A stretch of 64,000 bases of DNA from positions 621-64,620 of the forward strand of contig NZ_JABURL010000049.1 of the NCBI RefSeq assembly GCF_014762705.1. The letters are read 5' to 3'. The stretch is from Cyclobacterium sp. GTDB lineage: Bacteria > Bacteroidota > Bacteroidia > Cytophagales > Cyclobacteriaceae. The notes under the pieces were generated by a model that had not been told where the DNA came from, made no database searches, and saw only the letters and a program-made list of their open reading frames with translations. The position numbers and the translations under genes are program-made. Below are positions 48,025 to 63,993 of the stretch, piece by piece (within the stretch, counting starts at the first letter, position 1; every line of letters starts with the position of its first letter).

Positions 48025-48492
48025 CTAATTCCCAAGTTTATAAACAAAATTTCTAACATCCACCACCTTGAGCAAATCTTGGATACCCGGGAACCTGGGA
48101 TTGACCAACAGGTTGTGTTCTTCCGGGTAAAAAGAGATATGCAACCGGGCTGATGGAACCTTTAAAAATGGAAACCTATTTTCTATCAGCCACAGTTTGC
48201 CGAAATCTTGTGTTGCTTTGTTATGTGGCAGCATGTCCCAGTTCTGTGGAAGGCTTTCCTTTTCAAGCGTACCAATCAGTTCACTTTCAAGGATTTCATA
48301 AATAACCACATACCATGATCCAAAAGTGGTAGAAGTACCTTTGATACAAAGGTATTCCAAAGCCGCCAACGCCGCCGAACTACCGGTGTAAATCATAGGA
48401 TAAGCCTTGGGATTCCACCTTCCCCCTGACAAAGAACTGCTGAAAGGCTCCCGGTGGTATTTTTCCGACATCATGCGGTAATAGGTAAACAT
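48025..48492 (-). CDS. RES domain toxin (NAD+-degrading RES family)
   Basis: GGRWNPKAYPMIYTGSS.ALAALEYL carries the R and E of the RES signature. The 155-aa gene lies 2 nt downstream of an Xre/DUF2384 antitoxin gene. Confidence 0.8.
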   Translation of the reverse strand: MFTYYRMMSEKYHREPFSSSLSGGRWNPKAYPMIYTGSSAALAALEYLCIKGTSTTFGSWYVVIYEILESELIGTLEKESLPQNWDMLPHNKATQDFGKLWLIENRFPFLKVPSARLHISFYPEEHNLLVNPRFPGIQDLLKVVDVRNFVYKLGN

Positions 48493-48494
48493 GC

Positions 48495-49034
48495 CTACAT
48501 GACATTTCCAAAGTGAAGGGCATCTATGGCCTCATGTACCAGGTCTATCCCCGTCATGGATACCATTAGGACCACAGGTTTGGCTTGACCTAAAGCCATA
48601 TTTGGCGTATTCAGCCAGGATTTTAAGCTGGATTCCCGACCAAAAATATCCATCCCCTTTTTGATCACTTCGTCCATTTTGAAAAACTGGTAGGAACCTG
48701 GTATCCCGATTTTACTGTCAGCAGACCACCTGGAGACAGTGCTTTGGGAAACAGCTGCCGCTTTGGCCAAATCAACCATTTTAAGCTCCAAAAAATCAAT
48801 AATCGGGGCAATCTCAGCATAAGTCAGTTTATCTTCCAGCTTTTGACCCACCTCAGTCAAACTCTTTGCAAATTTAAAAGCCTTTAAGAAATAACCATAC
48901 CCGTCCTTGACCTCATAACTGACTTGCTGGTCTCCCTTTTTGACCACAAAGGTATCAGAAATGCCATAAGGCTTTTCATAATCTCTGATATGGTCTTCAG
49001 TCCTAAAGGTTTTATATGTCTTGCTTTTTTTCAT
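48495..49034 (-). CDS. Xre/MbcA/ParS-type antitoxin (HTH + DUF2384 toxin-binding domain)
   Basis: HTH region (LAKAAAVSQSTVSRW) and C-terminal WLNTPNMALGQAKPV....G.D.V...IDAL.FG, the DUF2384 signature. Confidence 0.8.
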   Translation of the reverse strand: MKKSKTYKTFRTEDHIRDYEKPYGISDTFVVKKGDQQVSYEVKDGYGYFLKAFKFAKSLTEVGQKLEDKLTYAEIAPIIDFLELKMVDLAKAAAVSQSTVSRWSADSKIGIPGSYQFFKMDEVIKKGMDIFGRESSLKSWLNTPNMALGQAKPVVLMVSMTGIDLVHEAIDALHFGNVM

Positions 49035-49421: not shown

Positions 49422-50657
49422 CTACTCCCAACCCTTAACCTCACTACTCCGCCGATTGCCCGACTCATCCACCCAGTAGATATACCAAAGTCTGGCATCT
49501 GAAGGAATAGTGACCGTACCTTTGGCTGTATCAAGTGGTACAAGTTTCCACTCCCTTTCCGGACTCTTTTTGTCCTCTGTGGTGTAAGCGAGGTAAACTT
49601 CTTTTGGAGCAGGAGTAGTCGAATACCTGGCCTGACTCCCCTTTTGTTTCAATTTAATTGAATTAATAAATTCGGTTTTATTTTCCAGTTGGGTACTGAT
49701 AAAACGGTAAATCTCCCCGGGTTCTGCTCCGTGTAAATGGCTATGTTTCAGTTCCGGTATCATGGAATACTGTGCATTTCTGGCCAGATTGGCTGTTTTT
49801 TGCCAATTTTCAACGAAATAGGCAAAATCATTGGTACCATTAACAAAAAGCATGGGTACGGTTGCATTGGCCACATAACTGGAAGGATCCCAAAGTTCGA
49901 CCCAGCGCTGGGTAGCATCAGCTCCCAAGGAATCAAACTGATTGTCCCAGGCACTACCTTCGTGAAGATAGCCAGCGCCATACACAGGCACGGCAGCGCT
50001 AAATCGGTGATCTACTCCTGCTACCAGATTGGTCAGGTATCCGCCCCAGCTGATGCCAGTGATGGCTGTCTTATGCGGGTTTACTTCTGGAAAGGAACGG
50101 ATCAGGGAATGCGCACGGATAATATTCGATACGGAATGGAATTGCCACTGCGCGTTAAAATCCTCATCCAATCGGAAAAACTTGTGCCCATCGTCCTGTT
50201 TAGGTCCTCCGGCCTCGAGTCGGGTACCTTTGGAACCCCAGGGGTTGTCCTGCTGATTGCTGGGTATATTTCCGCTCAGGTCCATGGCGATAGCGGCATA
50301 TCCCCTTTCGGCCCATTCCAATGCCCAGATTCGAAAAGCCGTTCCTCCCCCACCGTGAACCAGTACGATGCCGGGATACTCCCCGGTTCCCGGATTTTTT
50401 TCACCCAATGTGGCCGGGCTGGCATAATAAGCGAATACTTCCGTCACCTTCCCTTCATATGCTTCACCGGTATAGGTCAGCGACCAGACCGAGTCAGTCT
50501 GGTTTACCCACTTAAAGTCCGGGGCTACAGACAAAGTCTCTAGTCCCCAGGGAATGCGGCCCTCCAGGGCCGGAGGAGGCATAATTCCGGTTTGGGCAAT
50601 AATAACAAGTCCCCTCAAAAAAAACAACGTTAAGCCGGTTAAAAGAGTGTTTTTCAT
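49422..50657 (-). CDS. secreted alpha/beta hydrolase (acetylxylan esterase / dienelactone hydrolase-like), copy A
   Basis: Signal peptide, HGGGG oxyanion region and a GISWGG nucleophile elbow. It is a paralogue of 58631..59863. Confidence 0.75.
   Translation of the reverse strand: MKNTLLTGLTLFFLRGLVIIAQTGIMPPPALEGRIPWGLETLSVAPDFKWVNQTDSVWSLTYTGEAYEGKVTEVFAYYASPATLGEKNPGTGEYPGIVLVHGGGGTAFRIWALEWAERGYAAIAMDLSGNIPSNQQDNPWGSKGTRLEAGGPKQDDGHKFFRLDEDFNAQWQFHSVSNIIRAHSLIRSFPEVNPHKTAITGISWGGYLTNLVAGVDHRFSAAVPVYGAGYLHEGSAWDNQFDSLGADATQRWVELWDPSSYVANATVPMLFVNGTNDFAYFVENWQKTANLARNAQYSMIPELKHSHLHGAEPGEIYRFISTQLENKTEFINSIKLKQKGSQARYSTTPAPKEVYLAYTTEDKKSPEREWKLVPLDTAKGTVTIPSDARLWYIYWVDESGNRRSSEVKGWE
49673..50319. 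repeat. 647-bp block 100% identical to 58882..59528 (direct repeat, offset 9209)
   Basis: I compared the two copies line by line and found every base identical across the block. Flanking parts of the two paralogues are only roughly 80-85% identical by eye. Confidence 0.9.
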
Positions 50658-50878
50658 GCTGCTAATGATTTATTTTATATTTCTATTTTCAGATCACCTG
50701 CCAATTCCATCTACAAAACATTTACCCCTGTAATTTACAATCAACAAGGAAGTTATAAAATTACTCACAGGATAGCAGTAAGTTATATACCCTTATGGCG
50801 GGCAGCAAACTACTTTTAGTATTGATCCAAAGATTATCAATAACTCTAGGCAAAAAAATCTCTTTCCACCTAGGCACC

Positions 50879-51382
50879 TTAACATAATGCAAATACCAAC
50901 TTTTCAATATCTTCGTTATCAACCTTGTAAGATTTCAGACCTCTTTTCATAACATCAATAAATATTAATTTTTCAGATTTATCAGGCTCCAAAGTGTTAA
51001 AATCTTCAATTGCATGTTTCCAAGCTGATATCTCCGATGTTGGAGTCTCTAACTCAATTTTATCATTGTCTTTATCTGCTATATGTCCAAATTCATGTAA
51101 TAGAATTGTCATAAACTCAGTATCTTCAAAATCAACAACATTTACAAACAATGACAGCGGCTTCTTCGGTTCCGCATCTTTATCCCAAACTATTTTTCCA
51201 CCAAAACTTATCTTATTCTGAATAATTGCGTCTCTGCTGCTTACTGGGACTATGCTTAATTCAAGTGACAATAACCAGTCAATTTTCTCAATAAGAAGGT
51301 CTTCGTATCGAACTTTATTTTTTAATTTACTTTTAAATTCTCTTATTAGGTTGTTTTTTTTACGTTCGAAGGCTACAGTCAT
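50879..51382 (-). CDS. small putative zinc metallopeptidase (HExxH)
   Basis: 167-aa ORF with TILLHEFGHIADKD (HExxH). No signal peptide. AT-rich island context. Confidence 0.45.
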   Translation of the reverse strand: MTVAFERKKNNLIREFKSKLKNKVRYEDLLIEKIDWLLSLELSIVPVSSRDAIIQNKISFGGKIVWDKDAEPKKPLSLFVNVVDFEDTEFMTILLHEFGHIADKDNDKIELETPTSEISAWKHAIEDFNTLEPDKSEKLIFIDVMKRGLKSYKVDNEDIEKLVFALC

Positions 51383-51894: not shown

Positions 51895-53793
51895 TCATCC
51901 ATAATTTTGTTTGTTTGGTTCTGCTACTCTAGTTAAGTCATCTTCAATTAATTCATCTGGTTTGCTTAATCCGTAATATCTTCTTAATAATCGTTCTGGA
52001 TCACTTGACTCCAGCAACAAATCTTTTTCCTCTTCTGAAAGCTCACAGATTCCGAAATTTTTAATATAGTTTTTGCTCATTGATATATACCCGGACGAGT
52101 AGTCTTTGGTTATACTCTTTATGTAACCAAAGAATATATCTGATTCCATTATTCTCTTTAAAACTCTTAGCTCTCTAAGTGAATCAGACACTACCGCTAT
52201 TCCACTATAAAATAGCAATTTTTTATCTTTTGAAATTGTGAAAGTAGGACGTTCACTTAGGTGAGGAAAGAATAATTTGTATGAGTTAATATCAAGGGAC
52301 TGTCTACGGCCATATGCATACCATTTTTCGTATTCTCTTTGTCCTTTATCACGTGTGCTTAAAATCTCCCTATTACCGCACAAGTATTGGTAAGTATGAG
52401 GATATAATTCCTGAAAAACCTGTTCTTCTAGAATCAATATCTCCCTTTCGCTTTGCGTATAGGGAAAGATTATTTTCTCATTGTTAACCAATATATCCTC
52501 TTCACTTCTTGCTTTATTGGGGTTAACAATGTCACGACATATATCCTTTTCTATTTTATAGACCGATCCATTTTTGGTCTTTAATAAAAAATATCTATCA
52601 TCTTCTCCGAAAGGAAAAAACTTATAAATGTCATTTTTCAATGTTGCAATTCCGTTTCTTGTGGTATAGACGTCTTTAAATGGACGACCAACAGCCTCGA
52701 TTTTATTAACGTATTCAAGCTGATCCTTTGAATCAACCAAATTCCATCCATCATGATCGTGAAGTGTATCGTATTCGTAAGAAATGAACATTGAATCCTT
52801 GATCGATTCTATGCTATCAGGTGTTGCCTTTTTATATTTGATTTTACCTGCACTATTCTTTAAAAAACAAATGCATGTATATGTGCTACGGTTTTTGAAA
52901 ATTTGCTCTCCTCCAAAGTTGATTATTTTCAAGTCAACCTTGTTCCTGGAAAAATATTCTCTCAGTGATCTGCCATTGACACTTTTTATGAAAGTGTTTA
53001 CAGTTATAAACCCCAGAATTCCATCGGCTTTTAAGCTTTCAAATCCCAACTGAAAAAATGGAATATATAAGTCCGGATGACCACTTTTAGTAACCTCCCA
53101 ATTATCAATTAAATCAAGTGATTCCTGATCCATATTGCGAGAACATACATATGGCGGATTACCTAGAACTATGTCAAATCCACTAAAATCGGATGGATAA
53201 TCGCTCCAATCGAAGCTTAAAGCATTTCCTTTAAATAGGTTAAAATCAAATGACTCTTCATCTTCTCCTTCCGAAATTGCAAGAAGGCTAAGTAAGATTT
53301 TAGATCTTTCAATTGAAAATTCTTCAATATCTAAACCAAATAACTGGTTTCTAAATATTTCACTGAAAGGTCTTCCAGTAACATTATTCAACAGCTTTGC
53401 GCAAGACAGTAAAAAGGCTGAGCAACCACATGCAGGATCACATATTTTTATGTTTTCACGCTCTTTTTTATTCGATCTGAGAGACTCATTAATAATGTAA
53501 TCCCTAATGTATTTTGGTGTGTAAATTGCTCCATTTACTATCTTCTCTTCAGGAGATATTACGAACTCAAACAGTTCAATCAGCTGCTCAAAGTTATCGA
53601 GTATTTGTAAAGTATTGAACTCTTTTAGTGCTTCAAAATCTGCATCCTTACGCTGAATAAGTAAATTTTTGATAAACTTATTTTTAACTATTTTAATATC
53701 TTTTTGATACAAAAAGGATGATACGATCAAGCGGTTGATCTTTAAAGGATCAAAGGAATATGTACTGAGATATGAAAATACTTCCTTTTTCAT
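51895..53793 (-). CDS. Eco57I/type IIG-like gamma-class N6-adenine DNA methyltransferase (no nuclease domain)
   Basis: Motif X GAIYTPKYI, motif I CDPACGCSAFLL and motif IV LGNPPYV, followed by about 300 aa of TRD-like region. The ATG at 53793 forms an ATGA overlap with the upstream gene's stop. Confidence 0.8.
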   Translation of the reverse strand: MKKEVFSYLSTYSFDPLKINRLIVSSFLYQKDIKIVKNKFIKNLLIQRKDADFEALKEFNTLQILDNFEQLIELFEFVISPEEKIVNGAIYTPKYIRDYIINESLRSNKKERENIKICDPACGCSAFLLSCAKLLNNVTGRPFSEIFRNQLFGLDIEEFSIERSKILLSLLAISEGEDEESFDFNLFKGNALSFDWSDYPSDFSGFDIVLGNPPYVCSRNMDQESLDLIDNWEVTKSGHPDLYIPFFQLGFESLKADGILGFITVNTFIKSVNGRSLREYFSRNKVDLKIINFGGEQIFKNRSTYTCICFLKNSAGKIKYKKATPDSIESIKDSMFISYEYDTLHDHDGWNLVDSKDQLEYVNKIEAVGRPFKDVYTTRNGIATLKNDIYKFFPFGEDDRYFLLKTKNGSVYKIEKDICRDIVNPNKARSEEDILVNNEKIIFPYTQSEREILILEEQVFQELYPHTYQYLCGNREILSTRDKGQREYEKWYAYGRRQSLDINSYKLFFPHLSERPTFTISKDKKLLFYSGIAVVSDSLRELRVLKRIMESDIFFGYIKSITKDYSSGYISMSKNYIKNFGICELSEEEKDLLLESSDPERLLRRYYGLSKPDELIEDDLTRVAEPNKQNYG

Positions 53794-54542
53794 ATTAACT
53801 GGGGAAATATATCTTTTGCACTCCAACTGTTTGCCACATTTGTCTCAAATCCAAAATGTCTAGAGAGGCTACAGTAATATGGTTTGAGTATGAGCTCTTG
53901 AGAATGTCTCAGGAGTTTTATAAATCTTTGCTCACTTCTCAATTTTTTATGAATTCCCGGGCAAAAGTTTGATGTAACAAAGTCAATCCCAAGTATTAAA
54001 TCCATAGGATAGTGCTTTAACCTTGGACTTCCCATGAATAATGAGCTGCCGAAATTCTCCCCTGGCACTGATTTTAACCTGTGACCGCCTACATGAATAT
54101 GATATGCAGGGTGGACTTCATCTGATTGACTATTTTCAGGCTGTCGATCTAGGTGAAAGCAAAGAATGTGTTTAACATCTCTTTTAGTAAGTCCTTCAAT
54201 TGTAAGATTGAACTCAAGCAGTTGAAAAGGATTAAAGTCTAATTTGTTTTCTCTAAATTCTGCCTTGACGTCTATATCCAATGTAACCTTAATGCTTTTT
54301 AGTTTTCCTTCTTTAGGGTATTGTATCCCACTAATTGGTTCTTGTCTAAATACAAGATTTTTGACTCTATAACCCCAACTCGTAGGGGTTGCTAGTGGCA
54401 GGTCATTCTCGTTTTTTAAACTTGTTACTGCAGTTGTTATAGGGCTGGAATCAATAGTTAGCTTAGCCAATATTTCAGAGAGCACTTTGTACTGATTAGC
54501 CAAATTGATTCTGAATTTTTTATTTGATTGATCAATAGTCAT
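53790..54542 (-). CDS. hypothetical protein (250 aa), member of the coupled operon
   Basis: Coding-like ORF with ATGA overlaps at both ends. I recognised no motif. There is a His-rich stretch HPAYHIHVGGH. Confidence 0.6.
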   Translation of the reverse strand: MTIDQSNKKFRINLANQYKVLSEILAKLTIDSSPITTAVTSLKNENDLPLATPTSWGYRVKNLVFRQEPISGIQYPKEGKLKSIKVTLDIDVKAEFRENKLDFNPFQLLEFNLTIEGLTKRDVKHILCFHLDRQPENSQSDEVHPAYHIHVGGHRLKSVPGENFGSSLFMGSPRLKHYPMDLILGIDFVTSNFCPGIHKKLRSEQRFIKLLRHSQELILKPYYCSLSRHFGFETNVANSWSAKDIFPQLI

Positions 54543-55627
54543 TTGCTCAAACTTTCTGAATCTTGCTTAAGTCGCTCTTCATCTAGAGGATGCACTTCGA
54601 TTCCTTCCTTTTGAGCTTTTCTTCCTACAAAGGAAATCAGTGAAGCATAGGAATATTCCTGCCAAGGTTTAGGCTCCTCTCTCATATTTATCCGATAGCC
54701 TTCAAAAGGGTCTAAAGGATTTTTTGAAACTTGACATATTGTCCAAAAATCTGTACTCGAATTCAATTCTTCAGGGCTAGCGCTGACTATATTATTTAGT
54801 CTTAGTGATTGTTTAATAGCATCTACCCTTTCTTTCGCATTTAACACTGCCAATGACTTACCCGTAATCTTTTCAAAAGTTTCCACGATTAAATCTGACC
54901 ACCATCTAGGCCAACATTCCGAAAACACTCCCCTATATTTTTGATCATTGAATGTTTCGAATACTTTTTTGGTATCAGCTGATTTGGCTATGTCGATACC
55001 AAGCCTAGCTGCCAAAATGTTTTCATCTACTAATAATCCAATTGGTTGAACTAGGTCTTTAAAGATTACTCTAGCTATTTCATGCGAAGGAGGAGTTGAT
55101 TTCTTACTCATGAATCTTGAAAATACTCGTTCATCAATTTCAGAGACCTTCCTTTTTAAAATTTCTTCAAAATCACCTTTTTTATCGACAATAAGAGAAT
55201 ACCCGTTGCACATGCAAATTATCTTTTCAATTGTCTCGTCGTTTATGTCCTTTTTAAGGAAAGTCCAATCAAACAGATTATGGCTCGTGAAATCTTTGTC
55301 ATAAGTCTCTTTGATTCTAGCTTCCGTGGAACAGAGAATAATTGGTATATCTTTAATCTTTCCCTCAGTTGCGTAGGTCCTAATTGTCTGGGCTATAGTC
55401 GGTGCTTGATATTTTACTTGCTTCCCGTCTTCTTGAGGGCCATTCAATTGAAGGTCTAAAAGTAACCCATCATAATGACTCAGGCTATCTAACAAATTAC
55501 CAACCTCTGATTCATAGAAATCAGGTTTGTCCCATTTGATTTCAAGTTTGCCAGTGGATTCTAACTTTCTCTTTATTGGCAGAACAAGATCATCTTTTTC
55601 ATCATCTAGGTAGAGTATCTTTTTCAT
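54539..55627 (-). CDS. receiver (REC) domain protein with an uncharacterised ~230-aa C-terminal domain
   Basis: The N-terminus has KILYLDDEKDD (acidic pocket), GLLLDLQL (candidate phospho-acceptor Asp) and IPIILCST (conserved Ser/Thr position). The C-terminal two thirds carry no motif I recognise. Confidence 0.6.
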   Translation of the reverse strand: MKKILYLDDEKDDLVLPIKRKLESTGKLEIKWDKPDFYESEVGNLLDSLSHYDGLLLDLQLNGPQEDGKQVKYQAPTIAQTIRTYATEGKIKDIPIILCSTEARIKETYDKDFTSHNLFDWTFLKKDINDETIEKIICMCNGYSLIVDKKGDFEEILKRKVSEIDERVFSRFMSKKSTPPSHEIARVIFKDLVQPIGLLVDENILAARLGIDIAKSADTKKVFETFNDQKYRGVFSECWPRWWSDLIVETFEKITGKSLAVLNAKERVDAIKQSLRLNNIVSASPEELNSSTDFWTICQVSKNPLDPFEGYRINMREEPKPWQEYSYASLISFVGRKAQKEGIEVHPLDEERLKQDSESLSK

Positions 55628-57912
55628 TTTTCATCAAGTTTTGGAAGCTCTATTCTTATTGTCGTATTACACCCGTTAGAAGGATTATCTACCAAGACAT
55701 CCCCCCCGTATCCTTCAACTATATCTTTAATTATTTTGAGTCCTAAACCTGTTCCTGTTAATTCTTCAATTTCGTTGGAGGACTTTCCTGTTGGAGGACT
55801 TGTTGTGAAGAAAGCTTCGAAAACATGTTCACGATCTTTCTCTGGTATTCCTATTCCATTATCTGAAAAAGTGAAAAATATTTTACCGTTTTCAATGCCT
55901 CCTTCAATATAAATAATTCCCTTACGTCCTGTTTTTGAAATGGCTTTCTTAGAGTTAGTATACAGATTAAATAGTATTGATGACCATTCAGATTTATGCA
56001 TAGGACAAGTAAACAGGTTGTAGCCTTTGAACTCATACTTTAGTTCTATACCATTTCTAAGCAAATCAGGAGTAATAGCATTTTCAAAATCAAATACAAC
56101 ATCTCTTATTTCAATTGGCTCTAATTCTCTATTGATGTTATTTGATATTGCCTCTTTGAAGTAAGAAGTGTACACTGTTAGAGACTCAAGGTTCTTACTT
56201 AGTCTTAATCCAGCTTTTTTCCCATCTTCAGATTCAATTAGCGATAATAAAAATTCGGTATCATATTTAAATGCCGGTTCATAATGACCGATTTCATGTA
56301 CGAACTCCCCAATTGTCAACCCAAGCCCAGCCAATATTCTTAACAATTGAATTTCTCTCAGTAATTCCTGTTTATCTCTTTCAGCTTGCGACTGTTCCTC
56401 CTGCTGTGTTTCTTGATATTCATTTAGCTTTTGATCCACGGATTTCAACTTAACCGAGATATTTCCTTCACTATCTTTTGAAACGCTATCGAAAATTTGG
56501 CTGTCGGCTGTCTCTATCAATTCGCTGACATCCTTTTTAACATCTTGTAATAATTCTTTGGAAGACTTCTTTTCCCATTCTTTTTGACCCGCAGTTCCTT
56601 TTCTCTCCCTGATATGAGAAATTTTAATGGTCATATCTGTAAGTGCCTTGTAGACAAAATCTTGTAATTCTCCTAAGGATTGATTTATTAATAATCCTTC
56701 CCTACTCGATTGCTCCTGAAACATTTCACCTTTTGGGTCAACAACCTCAACAAATCCAAAGAAGTTGATATTACCGTGTGGAGTTATCAATGAATTTCGT
56801 CTTACCGATGCGTCTAGCCCAATCCAATCATCATCTTTTTGCCCATAAGGTGGTACTCTGAATCCATTTCGGTAAAGCTTAATTCCTCCATTTTTCCGAG
56901 CATTTCCGAGTATGTATGAGTTAACTGATTTTGGTAAATAGGAAGATTTGTTCGAGTTATAAATAAAGTAATGAGCCTTTAAATGGATGTTTTTAAGAGA
57001 TTCAAATGGGGTTTCTCTTTCTGATTTACCTATGAGATAAACTTCCTCGGCAATATTTAATTTATCACTGCTAAATCCGTAATATCCTTGACCATTTTCG
57101 TCTACGTACGCCTCAATGTCAGCAAGTGCATGCTGGAAAAATTCACTTTGATCATCAATTATCAATTCACCGTTTCTAAATATTGACACAAGGAATCCAG
57201 AATCATTTTCACTTTTTGAAAGTCTTTCGGATAGTGGATATGGTTGTAGCAACTCAGAAACATATCTAAATGATCTTCTAAGCATCGCTTCTGACCAACC
57301 ATCTCGTACTTTTTCAATAATTAGGGTTGTGCCTTCATCTTTTTGTTTTTGAATCTCTTTAACTTGATTTGAAATTAAAATCAGGTTGCTATCCATCTCG
57401 TATTGATTCCAATTAACAACCAATTTAAGAGCCATATTTGACTCCTTGGTCTGTGTGATAATTGTTAGTACCTCGCCAATTCTCTGTGTAGCAAATCGAC
57501 CTATTCCCTTCTGTCCAGCCCTGACTCGATTAAATTTTGGAGATTTTGGATTATGGATTTTATCACTCGATGAGATGGTCATGAAACCTTTGACAAGTTG
57601 ATCACGAGTCATACCATGTCCATCATCTTCAATTGTTAATTTTCCACCAGGTGTGAAACAATTCTCGAAGTACAAATCCACCTTTGTTGCATCAGCATCA
57701 TAAGCATTTTTGACTAATTCAGCGACTGCCGTTTCATGACGACCAACTAATTCGCGACCCAGCCGATTAATTACCCCAGCATCTACTGAGAATCTAATAT
57801 TTTGATTATCAAATGAGGAGAGTAAGGAGGAGAGTTCTAAAATCCTATTATAATTATTAGGCTCCTTTTGAAGTGTGTCCTCCAGAAGTTTCCTTACTTC
57901 AACCTCAGTCAT
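55624..57912 (-). CDS. cytoplasmic fusion of a MORC/MutL-type GHKL ATPase and a histidine-kinase core (DHp + CA)
   Basis: N-terminal half: AELVKNAYDADATKV, IEDDGHGMT and GQKGIGRFA (Bergerat fold, HATPase_c_3-like). Middle: coiled coil followed by an H-box, GEFVHEIGHYEP. C-terminal half: NLYTNSKKA, SDNGIGIP, VFEAFFTT and GTGLGLKI (N, G1, F and G2 boxes). No TM helix. The start at 57912 overlaps the HTH stop by 8 nt. Confidence 0.7.
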   Translation of the reverse strand: MTEVEVRKLLEDTLQKEPNNYNRILELSSLLSSFDNQNIRFSVDAGVINRLGRELVGRHETAVAELVKNAYDADATKVDLYFENCFTPGGKLTIEDDGHGMTRDQLVKGFMTISSSDKIHNPKSPKFNRVRAGQKGIGRFATQRIGEVLTIITQTKESNMALKLVVNWNQYEMDSNLILISNQVKEIQKQKDEGTTLIIEKVRDGWSEAMLRRSFRYVSELLQPYPLSERLSKSENDSGFLVSIFRNGELIIDDQSEFFQHALADIEAYVDENGQGYYGFSSDKLNIAEEVYLIGKSERETPFESLKNIHLKAHYFIYNSNKSSYLPKSVNSYILGNARKNGGIKLYRNGFRVPPYGQKDDDWIGLDASVRRNSLITPHGNINFFGFVEVVDPKGEMFQEQSSREGLLINQSLGELQDFVYKALTDMTIKISHIRERKGTAGQKEWEKKSSKELLQDVKKDVSELIETADSQIFDSVSKDSEGNISVKLKSVDQKLNEYQETQQEEQSQAERDKQELLREIQLLRILAGLGLTIGEFVHEIGHYEPAFKYDTEFLLSLIESEDGKKAGLRLSKNLESLTVYTSYFKEAISNNINRELEPIEIRDVVFDFENAITPDLLRNGIELKYEFKGYNLFTCPMHKSEWSSILFNLYTNSKKAISKTGRKGIIYIEGGIENGKIFFTFSDNGIGIPEKDREHVFEAFFTTSPPTGKSSNEIEELTGTGLGLKIIKDIVEGYGGDVLVDNPSNGCNTTIRIELPKLDEK

Positions 57913-58114
57913 TTGAATTAACTTTATTTGAAACAATTAATTCCTTGACATCTAAATCAAGTATATCAGCAATCGTATTCAAGTCTTCGAGAATAGGTTG
58001 GCTTCTATTCTGAACATATGAATTCGTAATGGTATAGCTCTTTCCAAGCTTTTCCGACAGCCACGTTTGCGTGATTCCTTTTTCTTCAAGAACAGCTTTT
58101 ATTCGATTCATCAT
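57905..58114 (-). CDS. XRE family helix-turn-helix transcriptional regulator
   Basis: The 69-aa sequence IKAVLEEKGITQTWLSEKLGKSYTITNSYVQN.SQP is the classic Cro/C1 HTH. It is the first gene of the operon. Confidence 0.85.
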   Translation of the reverse strand: MMNRIKAVLEEKGITQTWLSEKLGKSYTITNSYVQNRSQPILEDLNTIADILDLDVKELIVSNKVNSND

Positions 58115-58630: not shown

Positions 58631-59863
58631 TTACTCCCACCCCTTCACCTCACTACTCCTTCGATTGCCCGATTCATCTATCCAGTAGATATACCATAAA
58701 TTAGCTTTTGCAGGTATGCTTACACGGCCTTTGGTTTGTTCCAGCGGTACGATTTTCCACTCCCTTTCCGGACTCCGTTTGTCCTCTGTGGTGTATGCAA
58801 GGTAAACGTCTTTCGGAGAAGGAGCAATCGAATACCTGGCCTGACTCCCCTTTTGTTTCAGCTTAATTGAACTAATAAAATCGGTTTTATTTTCCAGTTG
58901 GGTACTGATAAAACGGTAAATCTCCCCGGGTTCTGCTCCGTGTAAATGGCTATGTTTCAGTTCCGGTATCATGGAATACTGTGCATTTCTGGCCAGATTG
59001 GCTGTTTTTTGCCAATTTTCAACGAAATAGGCAAAATCATTGGTACCATTAACAAAAAGCATGGGTACGGTTGCATTGGCCACATAACTGGAAGGATCCC
59101 AAAGTTCGACCCAGCGCTGGGTAGCATCAGCTCCCAAGGAATCAAACTGATTGTCCCAGGCACTACCTTCGTGAAGATAGCCAGCGCCATACACAGGCAC
59201 GGCAGCGCTAAATCGGTGATCTACTCCTGCTACCAGATTGGTCAGGTATCCGCCCCAGCTGATGCCAGTGATGGCTGTCTTATGCGGGTTTACTTCTGGA
59301 AAGGAACGGATCAGGGAATGCGCACGGATAATATTCGATACGGAATGGAATTGCCACTGCGCGTTAAAATCCTCATCCAATCGGAAAAACTTGTGCCCAT
59401 CGTCCTGTTTAGGTCCTCCGGCCTCGAGTCGGGTACCTTTGGAACCCCAGGGGTTGTCCTGCTGATTGCTGGGTATATTTCCGCTCAGGTCCATGGCGAT
59501 AGCGGCATATCCCCTTTCGGCCCATTCCTGCGCCCATATTCGGAAGGCCGTCCCTCCCCCACCATGAACCAGTACGATGCCCGGAAACTCCCCGGTCTCT
59601 GTATTTTGTTCACCCAATGTTGCCGGACTGGCATAATAGGCAAATACCTCCGTCACCTTTCCTTCATAAACCTCACCGGTATAGATCAGTGATCGGACCG
59701 GTGAGGTTTGATTGATCCATTTAAATTCTGGTGCTTCCGATAATTTCTCCAAATCCCAGGGAATACGTCCCTCCAATGCCGGTGGTAAGGAAAGCCCGGT
59801 TTGGGCAGTGACCAGGCCTTGTAAAAGAAAGAGAGCTAAGCAGATCTGAATCAGTTTTTTCAT
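58631..59863 (-). CDS. secreted alpha/beta hydrolase (acetylxylan esterase / dienelactone hydrolase-like), copy B
   Basis: Same motifs as copy A. The signal peptide and C-terminal third have diverged, and the central part is identical. Confidence 0.75.
   Translation of the reverse strand: MKKLIQICLALFLLQGLVTAQTGLSLPPALEGRIPWDLEKLSEAPEFKWINQTSPVRSLIYTGEVYEGKVTEVFAYYASPATLGEQNTETGEFPGIVLVHGGGGTAFRIWAQEWAERGYAAIAMDLSGNIPSNQQDNPWGSKGTRLEAGGPKQDDGHKFFRLDEDFNAQWQFHSVSNIIRAHSLIRSFPEVNPHKTAITGISWGGYLTNLVAGVDHRFSAAVPVYGAGYLHEGSAWDNQFDSLGADATQRWVELWDPSSYVANATVPMLFVNGTNDFAYFVENWQKTANLARNAQYSMIPELKHSHLHGAEPGEIYRFISTQLENKTDFISSIKLKQKGSQARYSIAPSPKDVYLAYTTEDKRSPEREWKIVPLEQTKGRVSIPAKANLWYIYWIDESGNRRSSEVKGWE
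58882..59528. repeat. 647-bp block 100% identical to 49673..50319
   Basis: See the partner repeat at 49673..50319. Weaker homology extends from about 58409 to about 59900 (partner about 49200 to about 50700). Confidence 0.9.
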
Positions 59864-60648: not shown

Positions 60649-61008
60649 TTATCGTTCCAAATACTCCCCTATCACCCTTAACACCCCTAAGATATCTTCC
60701 CTCACCTCCCTATTCTCAAAGCGCAACACCCGGATACCACATAATGTAAGGGCGGAATCCCTTTCCAAATCTGATTGATGTCCTTCTTGCGTATAATGTG
60801 GTGACCCGTCCAGCTCCACGGCAAGTTTCTCCTCCGGACAGTAAAAATCCAAGATAAAATCCCCGTAGCTGTGCTGCCTCCTAAACTTCTTACCCTTTAG
60901 ACGCCTTCCTTTTAATTGTAGCCAAAGTAGCTGTTCCTCTTTCGTGGAATTGTTACGCAGGTCTTTTCGGGTTTCTTTTAGTGATTTTTTATTGTTGAGT
61001 CTTGCCAT
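60649..61008 (-). CDS. DUF559 (Vsr-like) endonuclease domain protein
   Basis: EEQLLWLQLKGRRLKGKKFRRQHSYGDFILDFYCPEEKLAVELDG..H is the DUF559 signature. I prefer the ATG at 61008 (MARLNNKK). Confidence 0.8.
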   Translation of the reverse strand: MARLNNKKSLKETRKDLRNNSTKEEQLLWLQLKGRRLKGKKFRRQHSYGDFILDFYCPEEKLAVELDGSPHYTQEGHQSDLERDSALTLCGIRVLRFENREVREDILGVLRVIGEYLER

Positions 61009-61083
61009 GGCTGAAAAAAGAATTGAATTTTCTTTATTAAATTTTATTAATCCTCCCCTCCATGTTTCCACCACCCCCTTATT

Positions 61084-63597: not shown

Positions 63598-63993
63598 TCA
63601 AAAACCTGTTTTAGGAACACCATTTCTACCTTCCCAGTCATCAATGAATGAGCCAATTTCCTGAAGAACAAAAGGCATAGATTTCTTAACATCGCTATCC
63701 AAAAATCTTAGAAAACATAAGCCCATTTTTTCCAAAATTAATTGTCTGCTTTGATCCTCAACGACAGATTCACCATCAAAATGGCTATCTCCATCAATCT
63801 CGATTACCAATTGCAATTTCCTGCAGTAGAAGTCTACAATATAATTTCCCAAAGGTTTTTGTCTATTAAAAGCATACCCTCGAAATTGACATGCCCGTAA
63901 TTATTGCCAAAGTAAAACTTCAGATAAGGTAGAATGAGCTCTTAATTCTCTTGAGAATTCTTTCAATTTCTTGTTGTAGGGAACAAAGTGCAT
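63598..63993 (-). pseudogene. DUF559 endonuclease gene interrupted by one in-frame TAA
   Basis: The minus-strand translation from the ATG at 63993 is MHFVPYNKKLKEFSRELRAHSTLSEVLLWQ*LRACQFRGYAFNRQKPLGNYIVDFYC.... The stop is codon 31 (63901-63903). The remainder continues in frame as track ORF 63598..63852. Confidence 0.75.

Follow-up and report, generated by a model that had tools for sequence, protein, structure and literature searches.

What does a bacterium gain from a response regulator whose output region, like the product of the next gene, belongs to no recognisable family? This question is raised by a stretch of 64,000 nucleotides from Cyclobacterium sp. (NCBI RefSeq assembly GCF_014762705.1, contig NZ_JABURL010000049.1, positions 621 to 64,620 of the forward strand), called the window here. 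An earlier note, made from the letters of this DNA, had singled out two open reading frames (ORFs) at 53790-55627, one for a 362-amino-acid (aa) protein with a receiver domain and an output region that could not be assigned, the other for a 250-aa orphan, and had proposed the two as a candidate effector module. Both ORFs exist on the minus strand with exactly these coordinates, and we refer to their products as REC362 and X250. Judged by its gene content, the locus is a five-gene minus-strand cassette of the phage-defence type in which a DNA methyltransferase is joined with a two-component signalling pair. Our reading, to which we give a probability of about 0.7, is that REC362 is the response regulator and X250 the effector-slot protein of a mobile, defence-type, translationally coupled operon, a variant of the restriction-modification (R-M)-like systems linked to two-component signalling, Ambrosia among them. 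The kind of system has been described computationally before (PMC8011034) and its sister form with an HNH nuclease is Ambrosia; what is new is the presence of X250 in the nuclease slot.

The genes follow one another in the order XRE regulator, paraMORC-GHKL/histidine-kinase fusion, REC362, X250 and N6-adenine methyltransferase, and with their relevant parts they are as follows.

57905..58114, minus strand: XRE/Cro-C1-type helix-turn-helix (HTH) regulator, 69 aa, C-protein-like (Pfam HTH_26 2.6e-07, HTH_3 1.1e-04)
55624..57912, minus strand: fusion of a paraMORC-type GHKL ATPase with a histidine kinase, 762 aa, starting with the ATG at 57912 (Pfam)
54539-55627, minus strand: REC362, complete ORF, 362 aa (ORF list)
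55178..55627, minus strand: receiver (REC) domain, REC362 residues 1-150, with the predicted phospho-acceptor D58 at 55454-55456 (AlphaFold2, Foldseek)
54542..55177, minus strand: C-terminal output region of REC362, residues 151-362 (212 aa; AlphaFold2 model, alignment)
54893-55087, minus strand: putative winged HTH, REC362 residues 181-245 (topology and a motif)
53790..54542, minus strand: X250, 250 aa, with an invariant His/Asp motif (residues 128-154) at 54081-54161 (homologues, AlphaFold2)
51895..53793, minus strand: Eco57I-family N6-adenine DNA methyltransferase that carries a target-recognition region of its own, 632 aa, starting with the ATG at 53793 (Pfam, PADLOC)

The start of the kinase was taken as this ATG; the TTG at 57936 chosen by the ORF finder would give 770 aa. 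The final 8 nucleotides of the XRE gene overlap the start codon of the kinase (ATGACTGA) and the other junctions are ATGA overlaps, so that X250 is linked in this way to both of its neighbours, REC362 and the methyltransferase. As every junction is either an ATGA or an 8-nucleotide overlap, translation is coupled throughout the operon. No convincing C-box, an operator with inverted repeats, was found ahead of the XRE gene. The ORFs lie within a stretch of low guanine-plus-cytosine (GC) content, 0.33-0.38 compared to about 0.42-0.45 on either side.

The earlier note had claimed a receiver at the start of REC362, and this claim held well. The motifs it quoted are all present (ILYLDDEK at residues 4-11, GLLLDLQL at 54-61, IILCST at 96-101), and the AlphaFold2 model, built with 43 sequences (mean predicted local distance difference test score, pLDDT, 93.4 over 362 aa; predicted template modelling score, pTM, 0.89), gives residues 2-148 a (βα)5 fold in the order β1α1β2α2β3α3β4α4β5α5. 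The best Foldseek matches of the model in the PDB are receiver domains (target template modelling (TM) scores 0.70-0.78, E-values down to 1.6e-05), and matches in BFVD are likewise of the receiver type. D8, D9, D58, S100 (with T101) and K125 are invariant in the 43 sequences and sit in the model at the ends of β1, β3, β4 and β5, the canonical receiver positions, while an insertion of about 15 residues follows β3. Pfam Response_reg (PF00072) gives no match to REC362 at E<=1, with two of the 43 homologues reaching merely E 0.069, and Response_reg_2 (PF19192) matches neither REC362 at E<=1 nor any of the 43 homologues at E<=10; these profiles miss the domain because it is too divergent. Fold and invariant residues together identify the N-terminal domain of REC362 as a genuine but divergent receiver.

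The C-terminal region of REC362 is modelled confidently nearly throughout (one 10-residue block averages 82 and the last two residues 87), and the claim that it could not be assigned stands: no model of Pfam, NCBIfam or PADLOC matches it or any other part of REC362, scans extended to 43 family members gave chance-level matches only, and its profile gives chance matches only against PDB sequences. Conserved segments in this region read LAARLGID, Y.G.F..W.RWW, FWTIC and PWQ. Residues 181-245 show the secondary-structure order α-β-α-α-β-β and the Xre-like signature LAARLGID, and on this topology and the one motif they probably form a winged HTH. On this reading, which no HTH profile match backs, the statement that the 362-aa protein has no DNA-binding motif is doubtful. 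Because of this probable winged HTH, the output of REC362 may be that of a regulator rather than an enzyme. A further subdomain of about 120 aa (residues 245-362) carries an invariant set of Trp, Arg, Cys and Asp.

The kinase encoded upstream would be the natural donor of the phosphate. Its N-terminus is a MORC-like GHKL ATPase (Pfam HATPase_c_3, residues 68-198, 1.5e-24) that resembles the BbrUII/HgiDII restriction enzymes (NF050001 3.1e-24; PADLOC REase_II 4e-13), its C-terminus is a histidine-kinase catalytic domain (Pfam HATPase_c, residues 653-766, 6.3e-24), and a conserved H-box lies between the two HATPase domains, the codon of H547 being at 56296-56298. Across 21 homologues there is no variation in the GHKL motifs, in the H-box (H547-E548) or in the N, G1 and G2 boxes, and for this reason the kinase looks competent; the invariant H547-E548 and the intact catalytic domain are consistent with phosphotransfer to REC362. 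The last gene of the operon encodes a methyltransferase with matches to Pfam Eco57I (5.1e-28) and N6_Mtase (1.4e-14), to PADLOC MTase_II PDLC03335 across nearly its full length (5.9e-106), and with the motifs DPACGCSA and GNPPY.

If the relay is intact, what lies at its end? X250 had been called an orphan, and this description did not survive: HMMER against 1.84 billion representatives recovered 558 clusters of homologues at E<=0.001 and 358 at E<=1e-10, all about 250 aa long and free of any fused domain, and the gene is strictly syntenic with the receiver gene. A word-indexed protein search gave one relative, compared to the 558 clusters of the exhaustive search, which is presumably why X250 looked like an orphan; apparent orphans from word-indexed searches are not to be trusted for fast-evolving families. 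H130, D132, H144, P145, Y147, H148, P173, R174 and P179 are invariant in both alignments of the family; for G152 and G153 this is true of one alignment, while the other shows conservation of at least 90%. Residues 128-154, CFHLDRQPENSQSDEVHPAYHIHVGGH, hold the His/Asp motif, which is the His-rich patch that the earlier note had pointed out. The AlphaFold2 model (pLDDT 82.7, pTM 0.85) begins with two helices, continues with a five-stranded antiparallel sheet, whose last two strands bear the His/Asp residues, and closes with helices at the C-terminus; residues 151-180, just past the motif, are of moderate model confidence (block averages 61-74). Taken together, conservation makes the His/Asp constellation a clear candidate active site.

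Profile scans and PDB-sequence searches found no known effector domain in either protein, as had been supposed. Pfam, NCBIfam and PADLOC gave chance-level matches only for X250 and 39 family members, no HNH match to X250 was found in Pfam or PADLOC, and none of the REBASE-derived restriction-enzyme models of PADLOC matches it. The structural check that had been suggested for the 250-aa protein, an AlphaFold model compared by Foldseek, was run and produced no significant fold match in the PDB. Several candidates were set aside along the way: the Hsp90 cochaperone Aha1 and EndoG as fold relatives of X250 are at noise level (TM <=0.26, E >=0.6), and matches of the REC362 C-terminal region or X250 to PDB sequences (a designed repeat protein, PTPRS, FASTKD4) are due to chance only. 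As to the suspicion that new effector chemistry hides here, it is possible for X250, and nothing in the analysis shows such chemistry.

Relatives of the cassette tell how closely its parts belong together. A contig scan with a single sequence found nothing and a wide alignment was too diverse, so a narrower alignment of REC362 relatives was used, which in a scan of species-representative genomes yielded 21 loci; contig look-ups and a plasmid search added further ones. In every REC362 locus with enough downstream sequence, a homologue of X250 lies immediately downstream of the receiver gene and the kinase gene lies upstream, and among the related loci examined X250 was found solely inside this cassette. 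The methyltransferase gene adjoins the trio of kinase, REC362 and X250 in nearly all related loci, downstream in most and upstream in four (L006, L021, L022, L035). Ahead of the kinase, an HTH_26 gene is found in the window and in six further loci (L002, L003, L008, L036, L037, L039).

The hosts belong to Bacteroidota, Campylobacterota, Chloroflexota, Acidobacteriota, Bacillota and Gammaproteobacteria, and several settings point to mobility. Tn7-like transposition genes stand beside the cassette in two loci (L029 and L035), from which the gene neighbourhoods suggest that it may travel as cargo of a Tn7-like transposon; in another (L037) it lies in an integrative element carrying ArdC, and in a further one (L038) PIN toxins are its neighbours. 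No relatives of the cassette were found in IMG/VR viral contigs or GenBank phages. On these gene neighbourhoods the cassette is conserved and mobile.

Two details of these loci may be recorded here. A TnsA-like gene is present in both of the Tn7-associated loci (L035 13424-17427 and L029 1780-2334, in an Acidobacteriota genome and a Thiomicrorhabdus genome), and Mu-transposase/TnsB-like and TniB genes in L035 only. On a Hymenobacter plasmid (L026 1-4952) the cassette adjoins a gene with a Piwi domain (prokaryotic Argonaute, pAgo) and a gene for a large DNA methyltransferase.

Distance matrices over 17 loci, a small and phylogenetically structured sample, allowed us to ask which parts change together. 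The distances of kinase, REC362 and X250 correlate with r 0.81-0.92 (X250 with kinase or receiver, r 0.86-0.90), and those of the methyltransferase correlate weakly with the three, r 0.37-0.50. When the other parts are controlled for, X250 retains a partial r of 0.58 with the receiver domain and of 0.51 with the C-terminal region of REC362. X250 is the fastest-evolving component, with a mean distance of 0.60. The weak correlation of the methyltransferase, set against the strong one within the trio, argues that the methyltransferase is exchangeable; the pattern is suggestive of kinase, REC362 and X250 evolving as one block to which the methyltransferase is added as an exchangeable module. Within the same 17 phylogenetically structured loci, X250 does not track the recognition region of the methyltransferase (r 0.37, partial r -0.20), a suggestive argument against a classical endonuclease matched to its methyltransferase.

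The closest known system is Ambrosia, described in a 2025 bioRxiv preprint (10.1101/2025.09.30.679545) as comprising the XRE protein AbrR, the N6-adenine methyltransferase AbrA, the HATPase/histidine kinase AbrB, the receiver protein AbrC and the HNH protein AbrD. Its anti-phage activity has been validated and each of its five proteins is required; protection is lost in the receiver mutant D60A; cluster and reporters are induced upon infection; phage DNA gains no protection from methylation by the system's own methyltransferase; a winged HTH is reported for its response regulator; and it is reported in Gammaproteobacteria only. The cassette in the window likewise has five genes in corresponding roles. 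Among them are an XRE gene, one for an N6-adenine methyltransferase, one for a kinase that bears an Hsp90-like ATPase, and one for a receiver protein that has the relevant Asp (the essential D60 there, D58 here). Moreover, two plasmid loci of Ambrosia architecture (L025, L032) encode a kinase, a short response regulator, an HNH endonuclease and an Eco57I-type methyltransferase, with the HNH gene exactly in the position of X250 and with a kinase homologous to that of the window from end to end (25% identity, E 1e-34), and HTH genes lie just upstream in L032. The differences are also clear: an unrelated family, X250, replaces the HNH endonuclease, the receiver protein is about 150 aa longer and has a family-specific C-terminal subdomain, the gene order differs in that the methyltransferase comes last here, and the variant occurs in at least six phyla rather than in Gammaproteobacteria only.

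Other systems share parts of this design. Bellieny-Rabelo et al. (2021; PMC8011034) described computationally kinases with HATPase_c_3, H-box and HATPase_c beside divergent receiver proteins within R-M genes, suggested regulatory roles for them and noted that the founding genes are induced during plant infection. Their HEF_HK/Response_reg_2 elements resemble the cassette in having a soluble kinase of this composition beside a divergent receiver without a known output domain, and in that kinase and receiver genes tied to R-M genes adjoin each other, as they do in the window and in every related locus; they differ in carrying mainly a C5 methyltransferase with Vsr where an Eco57I-type N6-adenine methyltransferase is found here, and X250 is not described in that work. 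PF19191 (HEF_HK), listed among the current Pfam HisKA entries, and PF19192 do not match, and the cassette is therefore a related family rather than a member of that group. The paraMORC GHKL proteins, linked to R-M operons that include HNH nucleases (Iyer, Abhiman & Aravind 2008, PMC2292703), are similar, as seen in the paraMORC1 type, in having at the N-terminus a MORC-like GHKL module, followed by a conserved extension on its C-terminal side, and in their linkage to methyltransferases and a nuclease gene, and differ in that the extension here is a histidine-kinase core and the nuclease slot holds X250. In the BbrUII/HgiDII GHKL enzymes and the paraMORC3/Shedu type I-D proteins the N-terminal GHKL module matches that of the kinase, yet there the ATPase is fused to a nuclease (as in L027, with a weak SduA_C-like C-terminus), whereas here a kinase core stands where the nuclease would be, with the receiver protein and X250 encoded separately behind it.

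The context is not that of Detocs, which consists of the kinase DtcA, the buffer receiver DtcB and the receiver-PNP effector DtcC (10.1101/2023.01.24.525353). Both systems appear to signal an anti-phage response by phosphorelay, the effector being joined to the receiver or coming after it. The comparison fails in that the cassette has one receiver gene, no buffer receiver and neither a PNP domain nor another Detocs effector, and has a GHKL ATPase module as its putative sensor, a methyltransferase and an XRE gene, while PADLOC gives no assignment for REC362 or X250; the operon is a paraMORC-histidine-kinase/methyltransferase cassette, of whose two-component-linked conflict system REC362 and X250 are, as the earlier note had sensed, the unexplained part. 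Neither the WASA paper on Vibrio cholerae nor the BREX survey describes this cassette, and DefensePredictor mentions a predicted HATPase/REC system in a figure legend only. Among other paraMORC-kinase loci, two (L028 2131-6596, L031 4518-11245) carry response regulators of 340-438 aa together with dcm, vsr or Type II endonuclease genes; in these regulators, too, the C-terminal part is unannotated, and it shows no detectable similarity to that of REC362.

How, then, might the cassette work? The cytoplasmic kinase would sense a cue linked to DNA or to infection through its N-terminal MORC-like ATPase module, would autophosphorylate on H547 and would hand its phosphate on to D58 of REC362, a chemistry inferred from the conservation of both residues. 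Phosphorylation would then switch the C-terminal output of REC362, leading to raised expression of the operon, to direct engagement of X250, or to both. X250, in the place of the HNH nuclease, would act on DNA, and the methyltransferase, as an exchangeable module, would provide the DNA mark. We tentatively suggest, at somewhat less than even odds, that X250 is a metal-dependent nuclease using the H130/D132/H144/H148 cluster. A bolder version, which we consider unlikely in its full form, holds that X250 is a nuclease or another DNA-directed enzyme with a fold unseen in solved structures, that it replaces the Ambrosia-type HNH protein, and that it is switched directly by the C-terminal subdomain of phosphorylated REC362. 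If this were true, the cassette would be a restriction-like enzyme gated by a phosphorelay, its specificity coming from an exchangeable methyltransferase.

The cassette matters, as systems that combine two-component signalling with R-M have only recently been shown to act against phages and their workings are unsettled, the failure of Ambrosia's own methylation to protect phage DNA being a case in point. The variant is taxonomically far broader than the reported range of Ambrosia and swaps a recognisable effector for X250. Knowing the function of X250, and whether REC362 controls it by transcription or by contact, would reveal the wiring between a phosphorelay and DNA-targeting immunity and could add an enzyme family.

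A number of observations weigh against reading REC362 as the response regulator and X250 as the effector-slot protein of an Ambrosia-like operon. For this variant the reading draws on sequence and models, and Ambrosia was compared by its published gene content and description. With regard to X250, Foldseek against the PDB gave nothing significant for the model (best E 0.45), and hhalign against the HNH protein of L025 gave a probability of 1.8%. Neither X250 nor the C-terminal region of REC362 has a catalytic domain, of a nuclease or otherwise, that sequence profiles detect, and hhalign finds no similarity of either to a Shedu-type paraMORC nuclease. With regard to REC362, residues 181-245 have no HTH profile or structure match, the winged HTH being drawn from topology and one motif, and the C-terminal region is absent from the Foldseek top 50 in the PDB and BFVD, where it was searched within the whole model and the lists are dominated by the receiver. 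The short response regulators of L025 and L032 have helical tails and no obvious HTH, so that a direct equivalence with AbrC is tentative; when the REC362 family was compared by hhalign with the regulators of L025 and of L028, only the stretch β1-β4 of the receiver aligned, and with low probability. Finally, PF19191 matches neither the kinase of the window at E<=1 nor the four other paraMORC kinases tested, and the receiver of the window is likewise missed by PF19192.

The main rivals part from our reading on two points: whether control is transcriptional or by contact, and whether X250 is an enzyme or an adaptor. On the first point, REC362 might not bind DNA at all and the relay might be post-translational, following a Detocs-like logic in which phosphorylation of D58 frees the C-terminal domain to dock onto X250 and so activate it, or in which the C-terminal domain is itself the effector with X250 as a cofactor, the XRE protein handling transcription. 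The co-occurrence of the REC362-type C-terminal region and X250 in all assessable loci fits this view, as do the coupling of their translation by ATGA overlaps, the partial correlations of X250 with the receiver and the C-terminal region (0.58 and 0.51), the co-transcription of kinase and receiver with effector genes, and the regulators of the sister loci, which bear helical tails only and therefore must act through protein contacts. Set against it are the infection-induced reporters of Ambrosia, the winged HTH reported for its regulator and the resemblance of REC362 181-245 to such a domain. We regard control by contact alone as possible, at odds well short of even.

On the second point, X250 might not be the effector and might serve as a regulator or adaptor, for instance as a phosphatase or phosphate sink of the relay, a reader of adenine methylation or a cofactor of the GHKL ATPase, in a system with no dedicated nuclease, as has been proposed for BREX-like systems. 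This would agree with the lack of a nuclease signature in X250, with the moderate model confidence of residues 151-180 (61-74) and with recurring weak fold matches to Aha1 and EndoG only, none of them significant. However, X250 stands in the exact position of the HNH protein, its invariant residues H-x-D ... H-P-x-Y-H together with R174 form a cluster of the kind typical for catalytic or metal sites, it evolves fastest of all components (mean distance 0.60), and no other protein of the operon has a candidate nuclease domain; we find an adaptor role doubtful.

Less probable still is an ordinary Type II R-M system under C-protein control, with X250 as a sequence-specific endonuclease matched to the methyltransferase and with kinase and receiver as add-on transcriptional regulators. 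An Eco57I-type methyltransferase and a C-protein-like XRE regulator are indeed present, and Type II endonucleases are very diverse and frequently lack a family match. Nevertheless, the divergence of X250 follows that of kinase and receiver (r 0.86-0.90) and not that of the recognition region (r 0.37, partial r -0.20), the gene for X250 turned up only within this cassette, no REBASE-derived PADLOC model matches it, and Ambrosia's own methylation did not protect phage, so that we consider this explanation improbable. That the cassette is not a defence system and is a two-component-regulated epigenetic switch altering host methylation or expression on a cellular cue, for which one could cite the regulatory roles suggested in PMC8011034 and the plant-infection-induced founding genes, is very improbable in view of its patchy, mobile distribution (plasmids, Tn7-like genes, integrative elements, toxin-antitoxin neighbours), the phage protection given by the sister architecture and the low GC of the island.

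The surroundings of the cassette in the window offer some further observations. Two paralogous α/β-hydrolase genes (Peptidase_S9/AXE1/DLH-like; 49422-50657 and 58631-59863) bracket the low-GC island of about 8 kb as direct repeats. Identity between the two is 100% over the central 600 bp and 72-92% in the outer parts, and this identical core between diverged flanks suggests recent gene conversion or a recombination route for loss of the island. About 500 bp separate the methyltransferase gene from a 167-aa ORF downstream of it (50879-51382) with an HEFGH (HExxH-type) motif, which has no family match and no tblastn counterpart in L001-L032, and a terminator-like hairpin at 50846-50873 follows this ORF. 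Adjoining the island are genes for a RES-domain toxin (155 aa) and an Xre/MbcA/ParS-type antitoxin (179 aa), which together with a nearby lone Phd/YefM antitoxin gene lie at 48025-49034 and 47254-47529. Just outside the island are two small genes of endonuclease character, a DUF559 gene (Vsr-like endonuclease fold) and a shorter ORF of the same family, as judged by eye, at 60649-61074 and 63598-63852.

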